Part shown: in pieces, positions 2,484 through 18,645 of the stretch | Layout of the letters: each line of letters begins with the position of its first letter | How positions within the stretch are numbered: the first letter of the stretch is position 1 | DNA from: an uncultured delta proteobacterium | Lineage (GTDB): Bacteria > Myxococcota > Myxococcia > Myxococcales > Anaeromyxobacteraceae | DNA: 64,000 bases | NCBI GenBank assembly: GCA_963766715.1 | Contig: CAVYBH010000014.1 | Span: 1-64,000 of the forward strand | Direction of reading: 5' to 3' | Notes under the pieces: model-generated | What the model was told of the DNA's origin: nothing | The model's input: the letters and a program-made list of their open reading frames with translations, nothing else | Database searches by the model: none | Program-made: the position numbers and the translations under genes

Positions 2484-6088
<3,605 letters not shown>

Positions 6089-7975: not shown

Positions 7976-8539
7976 TCACGCACCTTCCTCCGGAGTCGAA
8001 TCCTCGGCCTCGGTGTAGAGGCGGAGCAGATCCTTCGCGCGCCCGACCCGTCGATCGCTTCCTGGCAGGCGGAGCCGGGTCGCATCGAGATCGCCGAGGC
8101 GCACCCGATCCAGGCCGTCGGCATCCTTGAGGATGCGAAACACCAGCAGCGCCGCATCGGACCTCTCGAGGAACTCCTCGGCGGCGCGTTCGCCGTGGCT
8201 CTCGCCGCCCGAGTGGTGCGTCACCGCGAAGAGCGCGAGCTCCACCATCGGAAGCGGGAGCCCGCGGTGCAGCCCGAGCCCGACCACTTTTCCGGCGCTT
8301 TTCCCCCCGTGGTAGTAGTCCCGGCCGTCGTCGGTCCTCCCGATGTCGTGCCAGAGCGCCGCGAGGATGACGGCCTCCCGGGTCGACGGCTCCGCCTTCA
8401 GGGCGGCGGCGATCTCGTCCGCGTGGATCATCACCCGCCGGGTGTGCATCAGGCCGTGAATGCCCCTGGATCCGTCCTCTCCGTCCGGGCGCAGGAACCA
8501 GGCCGGGTCGGGGGAGGGGAGGCCAGCGCGGGCGGTCAT
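7976..8539 (-). CDS. HD-domain metal-dependent phosphohydrolase
   Basis: HG..HTRRV, AALWHDIGR, HG..SA, HH, LKDADGLDRVR. Confidence 0.85.
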   Translation of the reverse strand: MTARAGLPSPDPAWFLRPDGEDGSRGIHGLMHTRRVMIHADEIAAALKAEPSTREAVILAALWHDIGRTDDGRDYYHGGKSAGKVVGLGLHRGLPLPMVELALFAVTHHSGGESHGERAAEEFLERSDAALLVFRILKDADGLDRVRLGDLDATRLRLPGSDRRVGRAKDLLRLYTEAEDSTPEEGA

Positions 8540-8970
8540 CGGATGGAGGCCAGCGTTCGCAGCGAGCGGAGGTACTTGGAGATGCGCTTCGCGTCTCGTT
8601 CCGTGACCTCCTGGAGTCGTGTCACGTCGAGGTTGTCGCGGAGGTCGGCGATCTTCACCGCCCGCGCGATGGCGTTCCCGGCGAGGCGCGAGACGTACTC
8701 GTCGTAGTCGTCGCCGTCTCCGTGGGAGAGGAGGCGGAGGGCCGCCTCCTCCTCCGAGGTGAGGCCGTGCGCCGCGTCGAGCGATTCGAGGGTCCAGGCC
8801 GAGTCCTCCACGACGTCATGGAGGATGGCGACCTTGCGGGCGGAGTCGAGCGACGGGCTTTCCACCGTCATCATGACCCGCAGCGGATGGAGGATGTAGG
8901 GCTTGCCGGCCTTGTCGATCTGGCCGGCGTGGGCGTCCACGGCGACGCGAATCGCTTCGTCGAGGGTCAT
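8536..8970 (-). CDS. Small alarmone hydrolase / Mesh1-like HD protein
   Basis: AHAGQIDKAGKPYILHPLRV, AILHDVVED, VKIADLRDN; AGGAG RBS before ATG 8970; 4-nt overlap with the next HD gene. Confidence 0.85.
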   Translation of the reverse strand: MTLDEAIRVAVDAHAGQIDKAGKPYILHPLRVMMTVESPSLDSARKVAILHDVVEDSAWTLESLDAAHGLTSEEEAALRLLSHGDGDDYDEYVSRLAGNAIARAVKIADLRDNLDVTRLQEVTERDAKRISKYLRSLRTLASIR

Positions 8971-9100
8971 GCAGACTCCTTTCTGTGGGGTTCCGGGCGG
9001 CGGTCTTCTCTCCGCCCGCCCAGGATCAGAGTACGAGGCGGACGGACATCCCGAGACCAGCCACCTCCCGTGTCCGACCGCAGCGTAGACTCCCCTTCCC

Positions 9101-10247
9101 ATGTCGCTCCGCATCCTCCACAGTTCCGACTGGCACCTCGGCCGAGCCTTCTTCGAGGAGTCGCTCCAGTCCGACCAGGTCTGGGTCCTCGACCGCCTCC
9201 TCGAGGCCCTCCGGGATGCCCGGCCGGACGTGCTCGTCGTCGCCGGCGACATCTACGACCGGGCAGTGCCCTCGAAGGAGGCCGTGGAGCTTCTCGACGA
9301 CGTGCTCTGCCGCGTGGCGGCGCTCGGCATCCCGGTCATCGCCATCGCCGGAAACCACGACTCCCCGGAGAGGCTCTCCTTCGGATCCCGGCTCCTCGAG
9401 GCCAGCGGCGTTCACCTCCGCGGAGCCCTGGACGAGGTCGCGAAGCCGGTGGTCATTCCCGGGAAGGGGTTCGTCTACGCGGTGCCCTTCGTCGATCCCG
9501 ACGTCGTCCGCGGGATGACCGGAGACGACTCGCTCCGCGGCCACGCCGCGGCCACCGAGCGCATCCTGTCCGCCGCCCGCGCGGACGCGGACACCCGCGA
9601 CCTGCCCACCGTGCTCGTCGCCCATGCCTTCATCCAGGGGGCGATGGAGACCCCGGACAGCGAGCGCCCCGTCTCCGTGGGTACGGCAGGGTCCGTCCCG
9701 GTCGCCACCCTCGCCGGCTACGACTACGTCGCCCTCGGCCACCTGCACGGTCCGCAGGAGGTGGCGGCTGGCGTTCGCTACTCCGGCTCGCTCCTCAAGT
9801 ACTCGTTCGCCGAGGCGGGTCAGGAGAAGGCCGCCCTCCTCGTCGAGGTGGATCGCGGGAGCGCGCGCGTGGAGCCGATCCCCCTCGGGCAGAGGCGGGA
9901 CGTGGCTCGCATCCAGGGGACGATGGCCGACCTCCTGTCCCGGCCGGACCTCGAGCGACACCGCGGGGACCTCGTCGAGGCCACCCTCGAGGACGAAGGC
10001 TACGTCGTCGACGCGCGCGTGAAGCTGCAGGAGCGCTTCCCCCACGTCCTGAACGTCCGGCGGAAGGAGGTCCACTCCTGGTGGACGTGGCACCTTCGCG
10101 AGCCGGGTGGCGGGGGCGGCGGGCGACGACCAGGCGCTGTTCCGGGCCTTCCTCGAGGACGTCGTCGGCACTCCGCCCAGCGAGGCCCAGTCCGCCTGCT
10201 TCGCCGACGCGGTCGAGAGCGTGGCCAGGAAGGAGCGCGCGTCGTGA
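9101..10247 (+). CDS. sbcD: SbcD / Mre11-like exonuclease subunit (frameshift near 10080-10140)
   Basis: [37 protein letters not shown]. Confidence 0.93.
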
Positions 10248-13200
10248 GGCCTCTGCACCTCGAGCTCACCGCCTTCGGCCCGTACCCCGGGAAGCAGCCC
10301 ATCGACTTCACCGAGCTCGGCGGGAGCGACCTCTTCCTCATCCACGGCCCGACCGGCTCCGGGAAGACCTCGATCTTCGACGGGCTGACCTACGCACTCT
10401 TCGGCGAAGCTCGCCGGCAGCCGCGGCGTGGACCGCATCCGCGCCGACCGGGCCGACAAGGACCTCCAGACGCAGGTGGTCTTCCGGTTCCGGATGGGCG
10501 ACCTCGTCTACCGCGTGGAGCGGACTCCGGAGTGGGAACGGCCCAGGAAGCGCGGGGGAGGCACGACGACCCAGCCGGCCGGGGCGAGCCTCTGGCGAGA
10601 GGGCGACGACCTGCCCGTCGCGACCGGCGCCACCGACGTCACGAAGGCGATCGTCGACGTCCTGGGCATGGACGTCGACCAGTTCACGCAGGTGGCGCTG
10701 CTTCCCCAGGGAGAGTTCAAGCGGCTCCTCTGCGCCGATTCGAAGGAACGCGAGGTCCTCCTGAAGCGCCTCTTCGCGACGGATCGGTACGTCGACGTCG
10801 AGAACATCCTCGTCGAGCGAAAGAAGAGGCTCGAGGCCGAGAACGAGAAGCTGACGGCGCACCGTTCCGAGGTGCTCGGAGGGGAGACCCGGGAAGCGAT
10901 CCTCGAGCGGCTCGGCGAGGCTCGCGCCCAGGTCGATTCGGCAGGAGCGAGGGCGACCGAGCTGCGCCTGAAGGCCGCGGCCGCCTTGAGCGTGCTCGTC
11001 GAGGCGAATCAGGTCTCCGTCCGGTTCGACGAGCGAGACGGGGCCCGGACCGAGGAGTCCCGGTCGAGCGTGGAGGCCCAGGCTGCGAGGGTCGACGGCG
11101 AGCGGCTCGGGCGCGCCCGGTCCGCGGAGCGCGTCCGCGACCGGCTCGCCCGCGTCCTGCAGGCGGAGACGGACGAGGGGGCTTGCGTCCGCGAGGAGCG
11201 CGGCGCCGGCGAGACCGAGAAGCAGGCCACGGAACAGCTCGCGAAGGCCGAGGTGCTGGCCAGTGCGGCGGAGGCCGGGAAGCCCGAGCGGTCGAGGGTC
11301 TCCACGCGCATCGGGCAACTCGAGGCCGCGATGCCGGACCTGCAGCGCCTCCTCGCGCTCGACGCCGCCTGCGCGGCGGCCGAGGCGAAGGCCGGCGAGG
11401 CGAAGGGGAAGGTCGAGAAGCTGGGCCAGGCGCTGCTGGCTGCCGAGCAGAGGACCCGGGCGCTCGCCGAAGAGGGCGTGAAGCTCCGGCCGCTCGCGAT
11501 GGACCTGCCGGCGCGCCAGGAGGTCGCCCGGTCGCTGGGCGAGGCGCTGCGGGAAGCGCGGGACCGGGAGAAGCTGCGCTCCGAGGGGGCTGCCCAGGCG
11601 CGGACGTCGGACGAGGCCAGCCGCTCGGCGGCCAATGCCCGGGAGGCGGCCACGAAGGCCGCGAGGGGCGCGGAACGGCTCCACGCCCTTCGGGAAGAGG
11701 GGCTCGCCGCCTGGCTGGCGCGAACGGCCCTGCACGACGGCGAGGCCTGTCCGGTGTGCGGATCGCTCGACCATCCCGCGCCTGCCCAGGCCGAGGGGCA
11801 CATCCCGGACGAGCGAGAGGTGAACGAGGCCAGGGCCAGGGCCGAGGCGCTGGGCCGTTCGGCGGCTGAAGCCGAGTCGGCCAGGGACCTCGCCGCGGGC
11901 CTGCTGGAGGAGCTCCGGCGAAGGCTGGACGATGCGAGCCGGCGGGAGGCGCGAGACGTCGCGGCACTCGAGGCCGAGCACGCACTCGCCGTCCGGGGGC
12001 ACGCCGAGGCCCGCTCGGCGAGCGACCGGCTCGCCAGGCTGGAGGAGGAGCTGGCCGCGTGCCGGGCAGAAGCGGAGGACGCACGGGTCCGGCGGGATCG
12101 GGCTGGCGGGGATGCGTCGGCGGCCCAGGAGGGCGCGGCCAAGGTCGATGCCTCCCGGGCGGAGCTTCGGCGGCAACTGGATGCGCTCGGCGTCGGTCCG
12201 GCCGCAGCGGAGGAGGTCCGGAAGCTCCGGGACGACCTCCAGGGGCGCGAGAAGCGGGCCAAGGACGCCTTCGAGCAGCACCAGGCCGCGATCACCCGGC
12301 TGGCCCAGGCCGGAACGCGCCTCTCGCTGGTCCGGAAGGCCCTGGGCGACTCCAGGCGCACGCTCACCGAGGCGCGCGAGGCGGCCAGCTCCGCATGCGC
12401 CGCCGAGGGGTTCCTCGACGTCGCCTCGTGCACGGAGGCGCTCCTCCCGGTCGCCCGGCAGGACGAGCTCCAGGCCTCGATCGACCGGCGGATTTCCCAG
12501 CACCTCGCGGCGGTGAAGCGGCTCGAGGAGCTCGAGGCCGCCCTTTCCGGTCTCACCCGGCCCGACGTCGGTCGCGCCCAGGCGGAGCGGGACGGAGCCG
12601 AGAAGGCAGCCCGGGAGGCCGGGGAGGAGCGCGTCCGGTTCGAGCAGGAGGCTGCGGCTCTCACCGGGCGCGTGAAGCGGCTCGAGGAGCTGCAGGCCCA
12701 TGCCGACGACATCGCCGAGAAGCTGAAGGTCGCCGGCCACGTCGCCGAGCTCGTGAGGGGCAGCAATCCCAAGGCGATGAGCCTGCACCGTTTCGTTCTC
12801 GCGGCCCGCCTGGAGGAGGTGGCGGAGGCGGCCAGCGAACGGCTGACCGTCATGACCAAGGGGCGATTCCGGCTGCTCCACGACACTTCGGTGGCCCGGA
12901 GGAACTCCGCCGCCGGTCTCTCGCTCGTGGTCGAGGACACGTGGACCGGGACCCGCGATCGGCCGGTTGGCGCGCTGTCGGGAGGGGAGAGCTTCCTCGC
13001 CAGCCTCTCGCTCGCCCTGGGGCTCTCCGACGTGGTGCTTCGTCACTCCGGGGGGCGACGGCTCGATGCCCTCTTCGTGGACGAAGGGTTCGGCACGCTC
13101 GACGAGGCCACGCTCGACGTGGCGATCCAGGCCCTGGAGACCCTGCCGCAGGCCGGAAGGCTCGTGGGAGTGATCTCCCACGTGGCGGAGCTCCGGCGGC

Positions 13201-13268
13201 GGATACCGGCGCGCATCGAGGTGACGTCGACCGAGGGGGGAGCCGTGGCGACGGTGAGGGCGGGATAG
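10244..13268 (+). CDS. sbcC: SbcC / Rad50-like SMC ATPase (frameshift near 10410)
   Basis: AFGPY, Walker [15 protein letters not shown], zinc hook CPVCG, LSGGE, Walker [17 protein letters not shown] overlap with sbcD. Confidence 0.93.
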
Positions 13269-13356
13269 TCGGCCTCGATGACCATCCCGACCGTGTCGTG
13301 TCCGTCCCCCGCGTAGAGTCCTGGATGTGACCAGCAACTCCGCGAAGCCGAGCAAT

Positions 13357-13445
13357 TCCATCACGACGAGCGGTAGGGCCACGGCCCCGAGACCCTCGGC
13401 CAGCTCCCGGTCCCCCGGGGATGTGGCAATGCCGTGTGCGATGGA
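13357..13445 (+). ncRNA. SAM-I-clan riboswitch-like aptamer lacking P4 (copy 1)
   Basis: P1 UCCAUC/GAUGGA; J1/2 ACGA; P2 CGAG-C-GGU/ACC-CUCG with GGG/CCC; loop CACGG (13380-84) complementary to CCGUG (13432-36); P3 GCCAGC..CCCGG-UCCC-CCGGG..GUGGC; upstream of an operon containing metK. Confidence 0.7.
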
Positions 13446-13567
13446 GCCCGAATGACGCCCAAGCCGCCGTAACCCTTCACCCCGACGTCGCCGCGGCGCC
13501 TTCCCGCCGCGCGAACCCCATTCCACCGGTGACCTCGTCGCCGGGCGGGACACTTCCGTCCCGCGAA

Positions 13568-13582
13568 CCTTTCACGGAAAGG
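13568..13582 (+). promoter_or_regulatory. RBS-sequestering hairpin before the TPR-like gene
   Basis: CCTTTC-ACG-GAAAGG, whose 3' arm is the likely SD 8 nt before ATG 13591; preceded by a second hairpin GCGGGAC-N6-GTCCCGC. Confidence 0.45.
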
Positions 13583-13590
13583 CATCACCG

Positions 13591-14202
13591 ATGTTCGACA
13601 AGCGCGTGAAGCATCTCCTCACCGGATCGAAGCGGGGATTCGAGCTGCTCGACAACCGGGAGCCCGCGGAGGCCCTGAAGGTCTTCCGCGAGGTCATCAC
13701 CGAGGCGCGAAAGGCGGGCATCGAGTCCGCCAACCTGTACTGGGGGTGCGCCGTCGCCAGCGACTACACGGGAGAAATGGAGATGGCCTTCGAGAACGTG
13801 ACCGCAGCGCTCGCCCTGGATCCCCTCGCGGGCCCCATCCATCACTCTTTCGAGGTCATCACCCGCCGCATCCGCGACGCGCTCTCCGACCCGGAGCGCG
13901 CCGTCGACGACCCCTCCACGCCGCGCCTCTACGCCATCCTCGTCGGCGCCGGGGAGGCCGAGGTCGAGTCGCACGCCGCCATGACCCGCTACCACCTGGC
14001 CGCGGGAAACGTCCCGGCAGCCGCGGCCATCGCCGACGCGGCCGCGCTCTTCTACCCGAACGCTCCCTCGGCCTGGGAGGCGAAGGCCGCCGTGGCCACA
14101 GCCCGCGGGGACGCGGAGGGCGCCGAGCAGGCCCGCATCGAGGCCGCCGCGGCCGGGGCGGGGAATCCTCCCTTCGGGATTCCGGGCGGGGCGTGCGCAT
14201 GA
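13591..14202 (+). CDS. TPR-like helical-repeat hypothetical protein
   Basis: Helix pairs ending A..ALALDP and A..LFYPNAPSAWEAKA typical of TPRs; ATGA overlap with metK. Confidence 0.65.
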   Translation: MFDKRVKHLLTGSKRGFELLDNREPAEALKVFREVITEARKAGIESANLYWGCAVASDYTGEMEMAFENVTAALALDPLAGPIHHSFEVITRRIRDALSDPERAVDDPSTPRLYAILVGAGEAEVESHAAMTRYHLAAGNVPAAAAIADAAALFYPNAPSAWEAKAAVATARGDAEGAEQARIEAAAAGAGNPPFGIPGGACA

Positions 14203-15353
14203 CGCTCCGCACCAGCGAGTCGGTGTCCGAGGGGCACCCGGACAAGGTCTGCGACCGGATCTCCGACGCCATCCTCGACGCGGCGCTGCGCCAGAACCCG
14301 GGCGCGCGCGTCGCCGTGGAGACCCTCGTCACCACCGACCGATGCATCGTGGCCGGCGAGATCGGGGGCGTCGGCTTCCTGGACTACGACGCCATCGTCC
14401 GCAAGGCCATCCGCGACGTCGGCTACCACGGCGGCCTCCCCGGCTTCGACGCCGACACCGTCGAGGTCGAGGTGCTCCTTCACCGCCAGTCCGCCGAGAT
14501 CGCCGCTGCGGTCACGGCCGGGGAGGGGAAGCCCGGGGAGGTCGGCGCCGGCGACCAGGGGATCATGTTCGGCTACGCCTGCCGCGACACGGTCGAGCTG
14601 ATGCCCGCGCCCGTCCACTTCGCCCACCGGATTCTCGAGCGGCTCGCGGCCATGCGGAAGGGAGGCGAGGCGCGTCTCCTCCCCGACGCGAAGGCGCAGG
14701 TCACGGTCCGCTACGTGGATGGAGTCCCGGTGGACGCGAACACCGTCGTGGTCTCCCACCAGCACGCGGCGGGATTCGAGAAGGAACTCCCCGACCTGGT
14801 GAGGGCGGTCGTGGCCGAGGCCCTGCCCGCAGGCTGGATCACCCCCTCCACGAAGATCCTGGTGAACCCGTCCGGTTCCTTCGTGCAGGGCGGTCCGGCC
14901 GCCGACACCGGCCTCACCGGCCGAAAGATCGTCGTCGACGGCTACGGCGGCGCCGCTCCGGTGGGCGGTGGGGCCTTCTCGGGAAAGGACCCGACCAAGG
15001 TCGACCGCTCCGGCGCCTACGCGGCCCGGTGGCTCGCGAAGAACGTGGTCGCATCGGGCATCGCCGACCGTTGCCTCGTCGAGATCGCCTACGCCATCGG
15101 CCGGGCGGAGCCGGTGGCGGTGCAGGTGGACACCTTCGACAGCGTGGAGAACGGGCCCACCGTGGCCCGGGCCATCGGACGGGCCCTCTCGCTCACGCCG
15201 GCTGCGATCCGCGACCGGCTGCGGCTCGAGTTGCCGGTCTACGTGCCCACCTCCTCCTACGGCCACTTCGGGCGTCGCGGCGGGGAGAGGGACGGCCTCT
15301 TTCGCTGGGAGCGGCTCGACCTGGTCGAGGACCTGCTCCGGAACCTGGGATAG
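14199..15353 (+). CDS. metK: S-adenosylmethionine synthetase
   Basis: TSESVSEGHPDKVCD, GAGDQGIMFGYA, DAKAQVT, GGPAADTGLTGRKI, GGGAFSGKDPTKVDRS, YGHFGR. Confidence 0.97.
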   Translation: MTLRTSESVSEGHPDKVCDRISDAILDAALRQNPGARVAVETLVTTDRCIVAGEIGGVGFLDYDAIVRKAIRDVGYHGGLPGFDADTVEVEVLLHRQSAEIAAAVTAGEGKPGEVGAGDQGIMFGYACRDTVELMPAPVHFAHRILERLAAMRKGGEARLLPDAKAQVTVRYVDGVPVDANTVVVSHQHAAGFEKELPDLVRAVVAEALPAGWITPSTKILVNPSGSFVQGGPAADTGLTGRKIVVDGYGGAAPVGGGAFSGKDPTKVDRSGAYAARWLAKNVVASGIADRCLVEIAYAIGRAEPVAVQVDTFDSVENGPTVARAIGRALSLTPAAIRDRLRLELPVYVPTSSYGHFGRRGGERDGLFRWERLDLVEDLLRNLG

Positions 15354-15362
15354 GGGGTGGCG

Positions 15363-15884
15363 ATGGAGACGAGAGCGATGCCGGAGGTGGGGCAGGGGGC
15401 CACCGTGATGATGAACGGGAGCGAGTGCCCCGCCACCATCGTGCGCGTGGCCTTCGACGGGCTGGTGGTGTGGATGCAGGTCGACCGCGTCGAGGAGGGG
15501 GACGACGGCCAGGCCCGCTTCGTCCACGACCCCACCGAGTGGGTGCTGCGCGCGGTGCGCAAGGACGGCGAGTACCGGCTCGACCCGGACATGCAGCGGG
15601 TCGAGATCGGGCGACGGCGCTACCGGCGCACGACCGGTCCGTGGGCGATGGGGTTCGAGAGCTTCCGGGAAAGGGTCGAGCGGATCGAGCCCTGCCTGCT
15701 GCGCCGCCGCTGGTACCCCATGACGTACATGGGCATCCCGAGCCTGCTCCGCAGCGCCGACGACCTCCTCGCCGAGATGGACGCCTACCGGGGGGCGGAC
15801 GAGGCGGCGGTGCGGGTGCTGCGAGAGCGCCTGGCGGTGCGGAGGGACGGGTTCAAGAGGGCTCCCCGCGATGGTCTTGCATAG
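15363..15884 (+). CDS. Hypothetical protein, phage-like
   Basis: Clean ORF 9 nt after metK; N-terminal PEVGQGATV..PATIVRV pattern recalls phage hypothetical proteins (recollection, not searched). Confidence 0.7.
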   Translation: METRAMPEVGQGATVMMNGSECPATIVRVAFDGLVVWMQVDRVEEGDDGQARFVHDPTEWVLRAVRKDGEYRLDPDMQRVEIGRRRYRRTTGPWAMGFESFRERVERIEPCLLRRRWYPMTYMGIPSLLRSADDLLAEMDAYRGADEAAVRVLRERLAVRRDGFKRAPRDGLA

Positions 15885-15910
15885 CGGAGGATCATCCGTC
15901 ATGATGGAAC

Positions 15911-15999
15911 CACCATTCCGATGGGACGAGGGCCGCGGCCCGGCGACTCCCAGCCAACTCCGGCAGCAGCCGGCTCGGTGGCAATGCCGCGCGATGGTG
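15911..15999 (+). ncRNA. SAM-I-clan riboswitch-like aptamer lacking P4 (copy 2)
   Basis: P1 CACCAUU/GAUGGUG; P2a UGGGA/UCCCA; kink-turn GA..GGC-GA; loop CGCGG (15934-38) complementary to CCGCG (15987-91); P3 GCCAAC..CCGGC-AGCA-GCCGG..GUGGC; P1 3' strand overlaps the SD of ATG 16005. Confidence 0.72.
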
Positions 16000-16004
16000 A
16001 CCCG

Positions 16005-16963
16005 ATGAACCAGCCGAAGCTCTCGCTCGCTCCCATCCCCCAGGAGCCGTCCGGTCGCGCGCCTCGAGTCCGCCGCCTGGGTCTCCGCGCTGGCCAGAAG
16101 AAGATCCAGCTCACCGCAGTCATCGGCAGGGGCCGGAGGCTCCGCCTCGTGTTCGCCCGGACGAGGGCTGGCATCGAGTTCTGGCGCTCCTTCGACGCGG
16201 AGAAGTCCCCGCTCGTACGGGTCGGCGTCTTCCCGGGTCCATTCACGCCTCGCGCGGTGGCGAACCTGCTCGCCTCGGGCCAGGCGGGACCGGCCATCGA
16301 CGAGTCGGACGTGGAGGACGCGGTCGCCGACGGCGTGGACGAGCGGTGGTCGAGCCTCATCCGCCTGGCCTGGTCGAGGGTAGCCGGCAGGCCAGACCGC
16401 CGGGTGAGCGCAATCCTCGCCGTCGATGACGCGATGCTCGAGGAGATCGAGGGCGCGATCGGGCTGGAAGGCGTCGAGGACTACCTGAAGCTCGGTAGCG
16501 ACATCGAGCAGCAGAACCAGGCCTGGCTCGCGAACTGGCGCACCGAGATCGACGAGGAGGTGGCGCGCCGCGCGGAGCTGGAAGGGCGAGCAGGGGACGA
16601 GGTGCGGTGCCGTGCACACCGGACCTTCGTGCAGACCTGCCTCCTCACCCTGGGGCGCATGCCGTACGGGAGCGAGAACGCGGAGGCCTGGGCGGGCGCG
16701 GGCCTCGCGGGGCGGACCGTCGGGAAGGCCCAGCGGAGAAAGCTCCGCCTCCTGCAGTCGGGTCGCGTCGGGAAGTTCCGCGTCCGGGTCCTCTTCTGGA
16801 CCGCCGCGTTCACCTCCCGCTCCGGGGACACCTCGCCCGGCCCCGGCTGGTACTGGGTGACCTGCAATCCCGACCCCGGGTGGATGGTCGACGGCGACAT
16901 GGGTCCGTACAAGTCCGACCGGACGGCGTGGGAGGACGCGAGATGCCTGGACCAGGAGGATGA
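16005..16963 (+). CDS. Hypothetical protein (3' end uncertain)
   Basis: ATG directly after riboswitch copy 2; protein-like composition to about AWEDA; the next gene starts at ATGA 16960; as sequenced the frame stays open to 17354. Confidence 0.55.
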
Positions 16964-17641
16964 CGGCGTTCGAAGGCTTCCCCTACCTGGTCACCCGCAT
17001 CGGCCGGACCACCCTGCAGCACATCTCGTTGCTCCCGGCCGACTGGCCGCGCGAGCGGCTCGTGGAGGCCGTGCGTGGCCAGGCAGCGGCCAACCGGCTT
17101 CGACACCTGTCTCTGCCTGGGGGCGGCCGAGGCCGTGTACGTCGCCGCCGAGGGTGCAGAATCGACGAGCAGCGAGCTGCCCCGGGGCGCGCCGGTCGTC
17201 GGCGCCATCGCGACCGCCGAGACGCCCGAGGGGACTCCCGAACTCCGAGCCCGGTGGGCCGACCTTCAGGCCTTTGCCAGGCGCCACCCGGGCCGCGGCT
17301 ACCTGGTGGGCGACGGTCTCGAACGCGGCCACCGCGCCACCCCCGAGGACGTGAAGCGCCTTTCCGGCGCGGGCGAAGACGGCATTCCCGGGGGCCTCCA
17401 GCGCTGCGACGGCTGCGGCGACTTCCGGGGCGACTACCTGGCCGTCCGGGGGGAGGGGAACGGCGACATGACTCCGCGTGTGGTCCCGGTCCACTGCCGC
17501 TGCGACAACCACAACCGCTGCGCGCGGTGCGGCGGAACGCTCGCCGAGTGGAGGCTCTCGGCCTACCACTTCGCCGAGGCCGACCGGGCGGTGCGTTACG
17601 CGGCCGCGTACATGGCGCTCGGCCACCGGTGCCAGGGTTGA
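16960..17641 (+). CDS. Hypothetical protein with Cys/His-rich putative zinc-binding C-terminus (frameshift near 17097)
   Basis: GGAGG RBS; MTAFEGFPYLVTRIG joins FDTCLCLG; CDGC...HCRCDNHNRCARC...HRC. Confidence 0.6.
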
Positions 17642-17801: not shown

Positions 17802-18645
17802 ATGCCCGCCGAACCCGCCGTCCTTCGCGCCACCTTCCGCCGCCTCCACGAGCGCGGCTGCTTCGTCATGCCGAACCCCTGGGACGTGGGCTCGGCCCGC
17901 GCGCTTCAGCACCTGGGATTCCCGGCGCTGGCCACGACCAGCGCGGGGATGGCCTTCTCGCTCGGCCTGCCCGACGGCGGCGTGCCCCGGGCCGTGGTGC
18001 TGGATCACGTCCGCGCCATCGCCGGCGCGGCCGACGTCCCGGTGAACGCCGACTTCGAGTCGGGGTTCGGGGCCGACGCGGCCGGCGTGGCGGAGAGCGT
18101 CCGCCTCTGCGTCGCGACCGGCGTCGCGGGCCTCTCCATCGAGGACGCCACCGGCGACAAGGCGGCGCCCCTCTTCGAGCTCGACGTGGCGGTCGAGCGG
18201 CTGAAGGCGGCCCGGAAGGCCATCGACGAATCGGAGTACCAGCGTGGTCCTCACCGCCCGGGCCGAGTGCTTCCTGGTCGGCCATCCCTCCCCGCTCCGC
18301 GAGTCGATCCGGCGCCTCACCGCCTACGCCGAGGCGGGGGCCGACTGCCTCTACGCGCCCGGCCTGCGCACGTCCGAGGAGGTGGCCGCGGTGGTGAAGG
18401 CCGTGGCGCCGAAGCCGGTGAACGTGCTCGCCGGAGGAACCGCCTTCACCGTCGCCCGGCTCCGCGAGCTGGGCGCTCGCCGCATCAGCGTGGGCGCGGC
18501 GCTCTCGCGCACGGCCTGGGGCGCCTTCCTTCGTGCGGCCGGCGAGATCGCCGAGAAGGGCTCCTTCGACGGGTTCGCCGCCGCGGAGCCCTTCTCCCGC
18601 CTGAACGCCTTCTTCGTCGAGGACGGAAAGCGCAGGGGCGGGTAG
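17802..18645 (+). CDS. Isocitrate lyase / PEP mutase family protein (frameshift near 18240)
   Basis: PNPWDVGSA, ATTSAG, NADFESGF, SIEDATG, LTARAE, AGADCLYAPG, RRISVG. Confidence 0.9.

Follow-up and report, generated by a model that had tools for sequence, protein, structure and literature searches.

A P4-less variant of the SAM-I riboswitch in Anaeromyxobacteraceae and its possible place in a stress and conflict regulon

We analysed the first 64,000 nt of contig CAVYBH010000014.1 (C14 of assembly G000, GCA_963766715.1), which comes from an uncultured member of the Anaeromyxobacteraceae in the phylum Myxococcota; this whole stretch is called the window, and loci are given by L numbers where they must be told apart. 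Between positions 7976 and 17641 the window holds a block with genes for two HD proteins, SbcDC, a TPR-fold protein, a second MetK and three further proteins named here by their start positions (15363, 16005 and 16960), together with two copies of a short structured RNA. An earlier note on this DNA, made from the letters alone, had described an RNA of about 89 nt occurring twice, had assigned it to the clan of riboswitches for S-adenosylmethionine (SAM), and had placed the TPR-like gene, metK, sbcDC and the two HD genes where we also find them. All of this holds: the two RNA copies lie 2555 nt apart, and SAM-I is their best clan match with overlapping clan matches hidden.

Copy 1 (13355-13447, plus strand) and copy 2 (15910-16000, plus strand) match the SAM-I family RF00162 at a looser threshold, with 32.9 bits (E 1.2e-4) and 39.7 bits (E 1.3e-6), respectively, whereas at the gathering score, which is 44.4 bits for RF00162, Rfam gives no match anywhere in the window. 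The covariance scoring proposed in the earlier note thus aligns both copies to SAM-I, but below the cut-off. Four relatives of the same variant exceed it (47.6, 48.3, 53.1 and 58.1 bits). Both copies align to RF00162 positions 1-108, with the P4 segment cut down to 3-4 nt, and the P4 helix is absent in both. A covariance model that we built from 12 copies of the RNA matches the two window copies and nothing else in this genome (E<=1).

The fold is well supported by these 12 copies. A structure of 27 pairs, including a 5-bp pseudoknot, has 95.3% of its cells paired, against 34-49% in slid controls; seven pairs are altered on both sides, and the covariation score was reached by 0/500 shuffles. 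Helices P1, P2 and P3 are supported by covariation both in this alignment and in a second one, which was fitted to the model and so leans towards it. All five pairs of the pseudoknot between L2 and J3/4 are paired in every copy, two of them with both sides changed, and in the kink-turn of P2 the GA and the opposing A are invariant (12/12), with the second G substituted in some copies.

For the ligand pocket we kept 36 distinct copies of at least 50 bits from 49 matches in 63 sources, the 13 excluded being truncated, degenerate, canonical or weak, and transferred the RF00162 position numbers via the cmscan alignment. A6, U7, G11, A12, C44, A45, C47, G56, U57, G58, A87 and U88 are invariant in 36/36; passages of PMC3764141 count these bases among the conserved SAM-I positions and tie G11, C44, G58 and U7 to ligand contact. 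The G43-C59 pair is flipped to C-G in 36/36 copies and position 64 is G in 36/36, while position 46 is G instead of A in 16/36, every one of them a copy that heads a short upstream open reading frame (uORF); copy 1 carries both the flip and the A46 to G change. Such changes, and the fact that most of the controlled genes lie outside sulfur metabolism, would be expected of a variant that had moved to another ligand, such as an adenosine-bearing product of ADP-ribose or SAM turnover. We consider this very improbable, given that the bases for which PMC3764141 reports contacts with SAM, at its adenine, sulfonium and methionine parts, are all invariant and that metK is a direct target in two genomes.

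SAM-IV and SAM-I/IV riboswitches have an extra 3' hairpin and a second pseudoknot and no kink-turn, a contrast on which PMC7270179 touches. Here, P1 leads directly to a Shine-Dalgarno (SD) sequence and a start codon, the sequence thereafter is unconserved and a kink-turn is present, which speaks against an assignment to either family. Because P4 is missing and G43-C59 is flipped, and natural P4-less SAM-I aptamers exist and can function, at lower affinity (in the part of PMC12714719 that deals with them), the RNAs are best filed as a P4-less variant lineage of SAM-I, for which SAM binding itself is predicted. They share with RF00162 the P1-P2(kink-turn)-P3 core, the L2-J3/4 pseudoknot, the SAM-contact bases and the control of metK; they differ from it in the absence of P4, the flipped G43-C59 pair, a 5-bp pseudoknot, an SD sequence within P1, a uORF in half of the copies and targets in conflict islands. 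Three further loci considered as P4-less copies (L227, L228 and L230) turned out to be canonical P4-containing SAM-I, and a look-alike of the motif on C7 was matched neither by the Rfam SAM models nor by our own.

Across the 36 copies, P1 always runs with its 3' strand into an SD-like stretch, and a start codon, CTG in one case, follows 3-8 nt behind the RNA. In copy 1 this strand (13440-13444) overlaps the SD sequence GGAG at 13443-13446, and in copy 2 it overlaps the SD-like GGTGA at 15996-16000, with an ATG at 16005. The simplest reading of this arrangement is a translational OFF switch, in which SAM would shut off translation. The SAM-I aptamer of the Xanthomonas met operon (Xcc), as far as it is covered in the relevant part of PMC7270179, is likewise mainly translational and belongs to a Gram-negative host, but it has P4 and a separate expression platform, to which initiator tRNA binds as well, and its target is methionine synthesis.

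The copies fall into two equal groups: 18/36 head a long ORF and 18/36 head a uORF of 6-11 codons. Copy 1 belongs to the second group. The earlier note had it directly heading the TPR gene; instead, a six-codon uORF (13452-13472, plus strand) comes first and the TPR start follows 119 nt later, behind a C-rich leader (13473-13590, plus strand) with 54 C and 30 G in 119 nt and with hairpins. A terminator scan gave no intrinsic terminator in this leader, which, from its composition, is a candidate Rho-loading stretch. Behind the 18 uORF copies, TPR lies within the next two genes in 14 and comes after a WYL-type gene in one; of the other three, one is followed by a phosphatase gene, one by unknown genes and one by the contig end. 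A conserved ORF of 53-66 aa, with no Pfam or PHROG family and often with its own upstream TGTCCG motif, lies between the uORF and TPR in L151 (7720-7917), L158, L167, L170, L185, L212 and L213.

With 46 candidates scored per genome, our model matches 34/92 genomes of the family at E<=0.01, and 29 RNA sites of the family, besides the two window copies, reach at least 60 bits. In the phylum, it matches 15/151 genomes. The first genes behind the RNA are very mixed across loci, and the same downstream families (TPR and the 16005 group) recur behind it across genera, so that the recurrence of window genes with the RNA elsewhere, as anticipated in the earlier note, is borne out by the listing of downstream genes. 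Within the genus, the block of the window is patchy and mosaic. Paired RNA copies 1-5 kb apart occur at other loci too, namely L169 (2453-2543 and 3422-3479) and L152, and degenerate copies were seen in L158 and L224.

The TPR-fold protein (13591-14202, plus strand; 203 aa, predicted fold with pLDDT 91.9) belongs to a family with Myxococcota records, present in 26/92 family genomes, whose closest members are 79-82% identical; in a structure comparison, the predicted fold matches generic TPRs only. The earlier note had suggested TPR as a partner of MetK. As an obligate partnership this is not supported, because TPR directly precedes metK in three loci (the window, L142 and L331) against the 26/92 genomes that have it.

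The second metK (14199-15353, plus strand; TIGR01034, 439 bits against a cut-off of 309) retains all nine motifs checked and shares 51% identity with the housekeeping copy (G000:C8:561167-562273). The separate housekeeping gene that the earlier note had asked about does exist. In a quick, unrooted MetK tree of 43 rows with no outgroup, it groups in a 31-row housekeeping clade (SH-aLRT 100), and the window metK falls outside this clade. Elsewhere, in L152 and L187, the RNA is followed immediately by metK. Related second metK copies in other genomes adjoin radical-SAM and sulfur genes and lack the RNA; a sister clade of second metK genes (L143, L144 and L333-L336) stands beside radical-SAM and sulfur-uptake genes, with the RNA absent. 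No RNA copy was found near housekeeping metK genes or near most other second metK copies examined. In L219 (6689-11036), the RNA heads an operon of a MoxR AAA gene, a vWA-like gene and a highly diverged MetK-like gene without most of the motifs checked.

These observations bear on a metabolic origin of the arrangement, in which the RNA would have arisen to autoregulate a spare metK and then been shuffled before unrelated genes, its SAM control now being incidental. The mixed first genes, the mosaic block, the degenerate copies in L158 and L224 and the second metK copies near radical-SAM and sulfur genes without the RNA all fit such a history. Nevertheless, the pocket is invariant and the spacing from SD to start is kept in copies without a nearby metK, and TPR and the 16005 group recur behind the RNA across genera, so we regard a wandering cassette as unlikely.

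The ligands of riboswitches are usually inferred from the genes that they control, and SAM-I normally indicates sulfur metabolism. Of the genes scanned downstream of the variant RNA, none serves Met or Cys biosynthesis; elsewhere in the phylum, in a different family, P4-containing SAM-I copies precede metB-like, thrC-like and hom-metX genes (7 scanned of 16). The neighbours across the RNA loci include instead genes for ADP-ribosylglycohydrolase (ARG), PARG or Macro, Sir2, dual-specificity phosphatase, HD, HAD, vWA and TY-chaperone proteins, as well as YbjN, ARPP, NADAR, WYL, NERD-helicase and rhodanese-phosphatase genes, and the non-sulfur, conflict-type context that the earlier note had suggested is supported by the neighbour scans. 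ARG itself lies in the neighbourhood at L142, L151 and L331, and L331 unites ARG, a NERD-helicase, TPR, metK, 15363 and three WYL genes in one block.

A marker of ARG islands was found within 5 kb of 20/33 RNA sites, and near 16/26 of the sites having at least 8 kb of sequence, compared with 9/410 control windows of ten kb, all from this genome alone. As we compare related genomes, use a single genome as control and took three of the markers from the loci counted, we read this as an enrichment and not as a test. In the present genome, the accessory parts of ARG systems (HD, WYL, phosphatase and chaperone) are present, dispersed and not in one operon: a WYL triple, a phosphatase, a helicase and a TY-chaperone gene lie at C14:67.7-74 kb, 55 kb off on the same contig, and a vWA gene on C15. 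The cluster just past the window (G000:C14:67674-80702, L303) comprises AddA-like helicase, aspartyl-protease-like, phosphatase, NERD-helicase, three WYL and TY-chaperone genes, with a promoter-motif site at 68611 and a relaxed one at 80702.

Section 3.8 of Iyer et al. 2022 (PMC9503650) predicts ARG-centred systems made of the same accessory parts that we find near the RNA: ARG, WYL, rhodanese-phosphatase, HD, HAD, vWA, TY-chaperones, ARPP, NADAR, Macro and helicases. Neither a riboswitch nor MetK nor TPR is named in that section, and "S-adenosyl" does not occur in the main text of the paper, although its supplements may list such neighbours. The block in the window differs from these systems in having no ARG gene and in having its parts spread over sites that share one promoter motif.

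This motif, TGTCCG-N9-TAnnnT, which the earlier note had missed, occurs three times in the block: at 9028-9048 (minus strand), facing the HD genes; at 9071-9091 (plus strand), 9 nt before the sbcD start; and at 13299-13319 (plus strand), upstream of RNA copy 1. There are eight sites in the genome against 0.63 expected, and the neighbouring spacings give 0, 1, 3, 0 and 0. Those facing sbcD, HD, copy 1, the TY-chaperone gene behind the WYL triple and the vWA gene make up five of them; three are unexplained. Across genomes, the motif lies within 5 kb of 21/33 RNA sites, compared with 5/410 control windows, and it also stands upstream of TPR homologues that have no RNA. In another family, L339 (1950-4368) has the motif followed by metK and Sir2, and the RNA was not found there; in G000, a duplicated stretch carries the motif at C2:280722 and C18:40995, with no gene called behind it.

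Hybrid promoters of a similar build, in which a -10 box is combined with an upstream element bearing GTC, are known from the PafBC regulon of mycobacteria, whose motif is given as tGTCgg(N10)tA(N3)T in the portion of PMC8635444 concerned. The likeness extends to PafB/PafC-like WYL pairs, which occur in this genome on C8 and C14 and also beside TPR homologues, and to the repair genes sbcDC, which the motif precedes. In its exact form, TGTCGG-N10 is present at two places in the genome. The separate pafB/pafC-like pair of C8 lies at 17.2-19.2 kb (L306:7265-9237). The two systems differ in the element itself (TGTCCG-N9 versus tGTCgg-N10) and in phylum, and that portion of PMC8635444 mentions no riboswitch layer. 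By analogy, the motif may be activated by a PafBC-like pair.

Copy 2 has a promoter of another type. A sigma70-like sequence (TTG..-17-.AT..T) at 15877-15905 (plus strand) ends 4 nt before the RNA and contains the palindrome CGGA-N6-TCCG at 15885-15898, possibly the operator of some repressor; a consensus sigma70 scan does not call this promoter. The same promoter spacing is common to 10/36 copies, mostly with a palindrome between the boxes. A palindrome GGA-N6-TCC between the -35 and -10 boxes was noted in the window (15885-15898), L187, L190, L192, L194-L196 and L205, and in one palindrome copy the TGTCCG motif is present as its reverse complement.

Taken together, these data make it fairly probable, in our view, that a P4-less, translational SAM-I lineage gates part of a WYL-controlled stress and conflict regulon. 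What we observe is the fold, the intact SAM pocket, an SD sequence and start codon placed against P1, the genes in the neighbourhood, the promoter motif and a second, intact MetK. Bound SAM would lock P1 over the ribosome-binding site, with expression off at high SAM and on when SAM falls. Copy 1 would gate the uORF, and if this were left untranslated, transcription would stop in the C-rich leader by attenuation of the Rho type, so that TPR, metK and 15363 would need low SAM. The promoters of copy 1, sbcDC and the HD genes would need a PafBC-like WYL activator responding to DNA damage or infection; as both the activator and low SAM would be required, copy 1 would work as an AND gate. Copy 2 would use its own sigma70-like promoter with the possible operator. 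The second MetK would then refill SAM, and the remaining products would be accessory parts of ARG-type islands.

Several points weigh against a SAM-gated, WYL-controlled regulon. Both window copies score under the Rfam cut-off, no more than two or three bases at the start of the SD sequence are buried in P1, and when folded without ligand and without the pseudoknot, copy 1 already forms P1 (0.89-0.94), though copy 2 does not. Some genomes carry a second motif between the uORF and TPR, which might bypass the switch. The context counts come from kin genomes, with a one-genome control and three markers drawn from loci that were then counted, and 13/33 RNA sites have no island marker within 5 kb. 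There is no ARG gene among the window genes scanned; the two ARG genes of the genome are unlinked to the block and lack the strict promoter motif, and the TPR-metK-15363 unit of L331 has no RNA. A metK gene lies within 5 kb of 7/33 RNA sites genome-wide (in five genomes), leaving 26/33 without, and at one of the seven the gene, which follows MoxR and vWA genes, is MetK-like but highly diverged. One base of the motif does not fit the PafBC consensus, and its spacer is off by one position. Iyer et al. (PMC9503650) describe the WYL regulators of ARG systems as repressors.

A narrower version of the gated regulon would be a specific guard against phages: the RNA would sense the SAM drop caused by a phage SAM lyase, and the divergent MetK would escape the lyase and restore SAM while effectors are switched on. 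According to bioRxiv 10.1101/2023.02.27.530186, the T3 SAMase not only cleaves SAM but also binds the MetK of the host and inhibits it, so a divergent spare MetK is a plausible counter to a SAM lyase. The island MetK, 51% identical to the housekeeping copy and outside its clade, suits this role, as does the prediction in section 3.8 of PMC9503650 that ARG-centred systems counter phage ADP-ribosylation. The host has a second metK and the genes co-occur elsewhere, so the defence idea of the earlier note, which had been set against a sole, vertically inherited metK without such co-occurrence, survives. Yet the assembly (84.6% complete) has no clear SAM-dependent defence: a type I methylase is not clearly present, the N6-methylase search gave a single weak match (22.5 bits), PglZ was not found, and no protein of the block matched a PADLOC model. 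No SAM-lyase phage of this host group came up either, although no search was aimed at one. A guard of this kind seems to us possible, but rather doubtful. We would be similarly tentative about a combined infection sensor, in which the PafBC-like activator might report foreign or damaged DNA and the RNA a SAM-lyase collapse, together releasing a lyase-resistant MetK and ARG-type accessory proteins against ADP-ribosylation.

Among the remaining genes of the block, an HD-domain protein (7976-8539, minus strand; PF01966, E 3.5e-8) has homologues adjoining the RNA in L158, L169 and L187, and an HD_4-like protein (8536-8970, minus strand; PF13328, E 3.1e-5) has homologues downstream of TPR in L148, L150, L151, L163 and L212. 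They are followed by sbcD-sbcC (9101-13268, plus strand; TIGR00619 and TIGR00618), in which the sbcD frame is disturbed by an indel near 10075. Frame breaks were seen in a catalase-peroxidase-like gene (2484-4690), sbcD (9101-10400) and a PEP-mutase-like gene (17802-18645); because the indel at 10075 is absent from short-read contigs, several of these are probably assembly errors. None of the contigs from four DNA sequencing runs spans the block, and a search of sequencing runs gave no holder of the RNA.

The earlier note had called 15363, 16005 and 16960 ORFans, a label that does not stand: homologues exist for them, even though PHROGs, Pfam, NCBIfam and PADLOC give no family for any of the three and the ESM Atlas matches, all under 0.9, serve only as leads. 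The ~319-aa protein 16005 (16005-16963, plus strand) has a 50% identical homologue that is also directly behind the RNA, in L205. Its frame stays open to 17354 in the window; the ORF most likely ends near 16963, where the homologue ends, the run-on probably being an assembly indel. One short-read contig record over this region has 0 mismatches and 2 gaps, with gap positions not shown. The gene boundaries given earlier behind copy 2 had to be corrected: the Cys/His-rich 16960 is one frameshifted gene (16960-17641, plus strand; frameshift near 17075-17110), with a 238-aa homologue that aligns across both frames and that stands first after the RNA in L220.

The protein 15363 (15363-15884, plus strand) combines a phage-type beta domain with a three-helix domain. 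Its gene follows metK in the window, L142, L152, L187, L315 and L331, and follows TPR without metK in L149. The helical domain is fused to ADP-ribosylglycohydrolase (P0093) or DUF3293 in three of the 23 proteins scanned, and structure comparison gave only common three-helix bundles (best Z 9.4). The beta domain is similar to small proteins of phages, such as gp668 of Bacillus phage G (E 3.1e-6), and phrog_33370 was matched by 10/12 of its stand-alone relatives scanned.

This phage-like domain, along with integrase or resolvase genes near the RNA copies of L214 and L224 and a VapE-like gene near that of L216, could be taken as traces of a selfish mobile element that times its cargo to the SAM level of the host. 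The searches speak otherwise. A loose DNA pattern in viral contigs gave 120 stretches with no full RNA copy by profile search, and a tighter one gave 67 viral loci, again with no RNA copy (one 22.6-bit match); TPR was encoded in 0/145 pattern-matching viral stretches. Phage records gave no match and plasmid records a single 27-nt match, although phages of the host group are perhaps thinly sampled, and the window has no integrase among the genes scanned and no tRNA. GC content at third codon positions, examined for a mobile origin of the block, was 0.90-0.94 against 0.98 in housekeeping metK. The mobile or phage cargo envisaged in the earlier note did not find support, and we think a selfish element quite improbable.

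Literature searches, with subscription papers outside their scope, gave no paper that connects SAM-I riboswitches with islands of Myxococcota, with SAM lyases or with defence islands. The present data connect several unknown proteins, a spare MetK and the TPR family with ARG-centred systems, for which they also offer a candidate promoter motif. Since the RNA is shorter than 100 nt and cultured carriers exist (L151 and L159), a direct test of the claim is feasible. About a third of this bacterial family has kept a SAM-I lineage, its pocket intact, before predicted conflict and repair island genes, where a second promoter layer that depends on protein apparently governs it. If the proposed working is true, a shortage of SAM would serve these bacteria as a signal of stress or infection, and the host would have a possible answer to phage SAM lyases.

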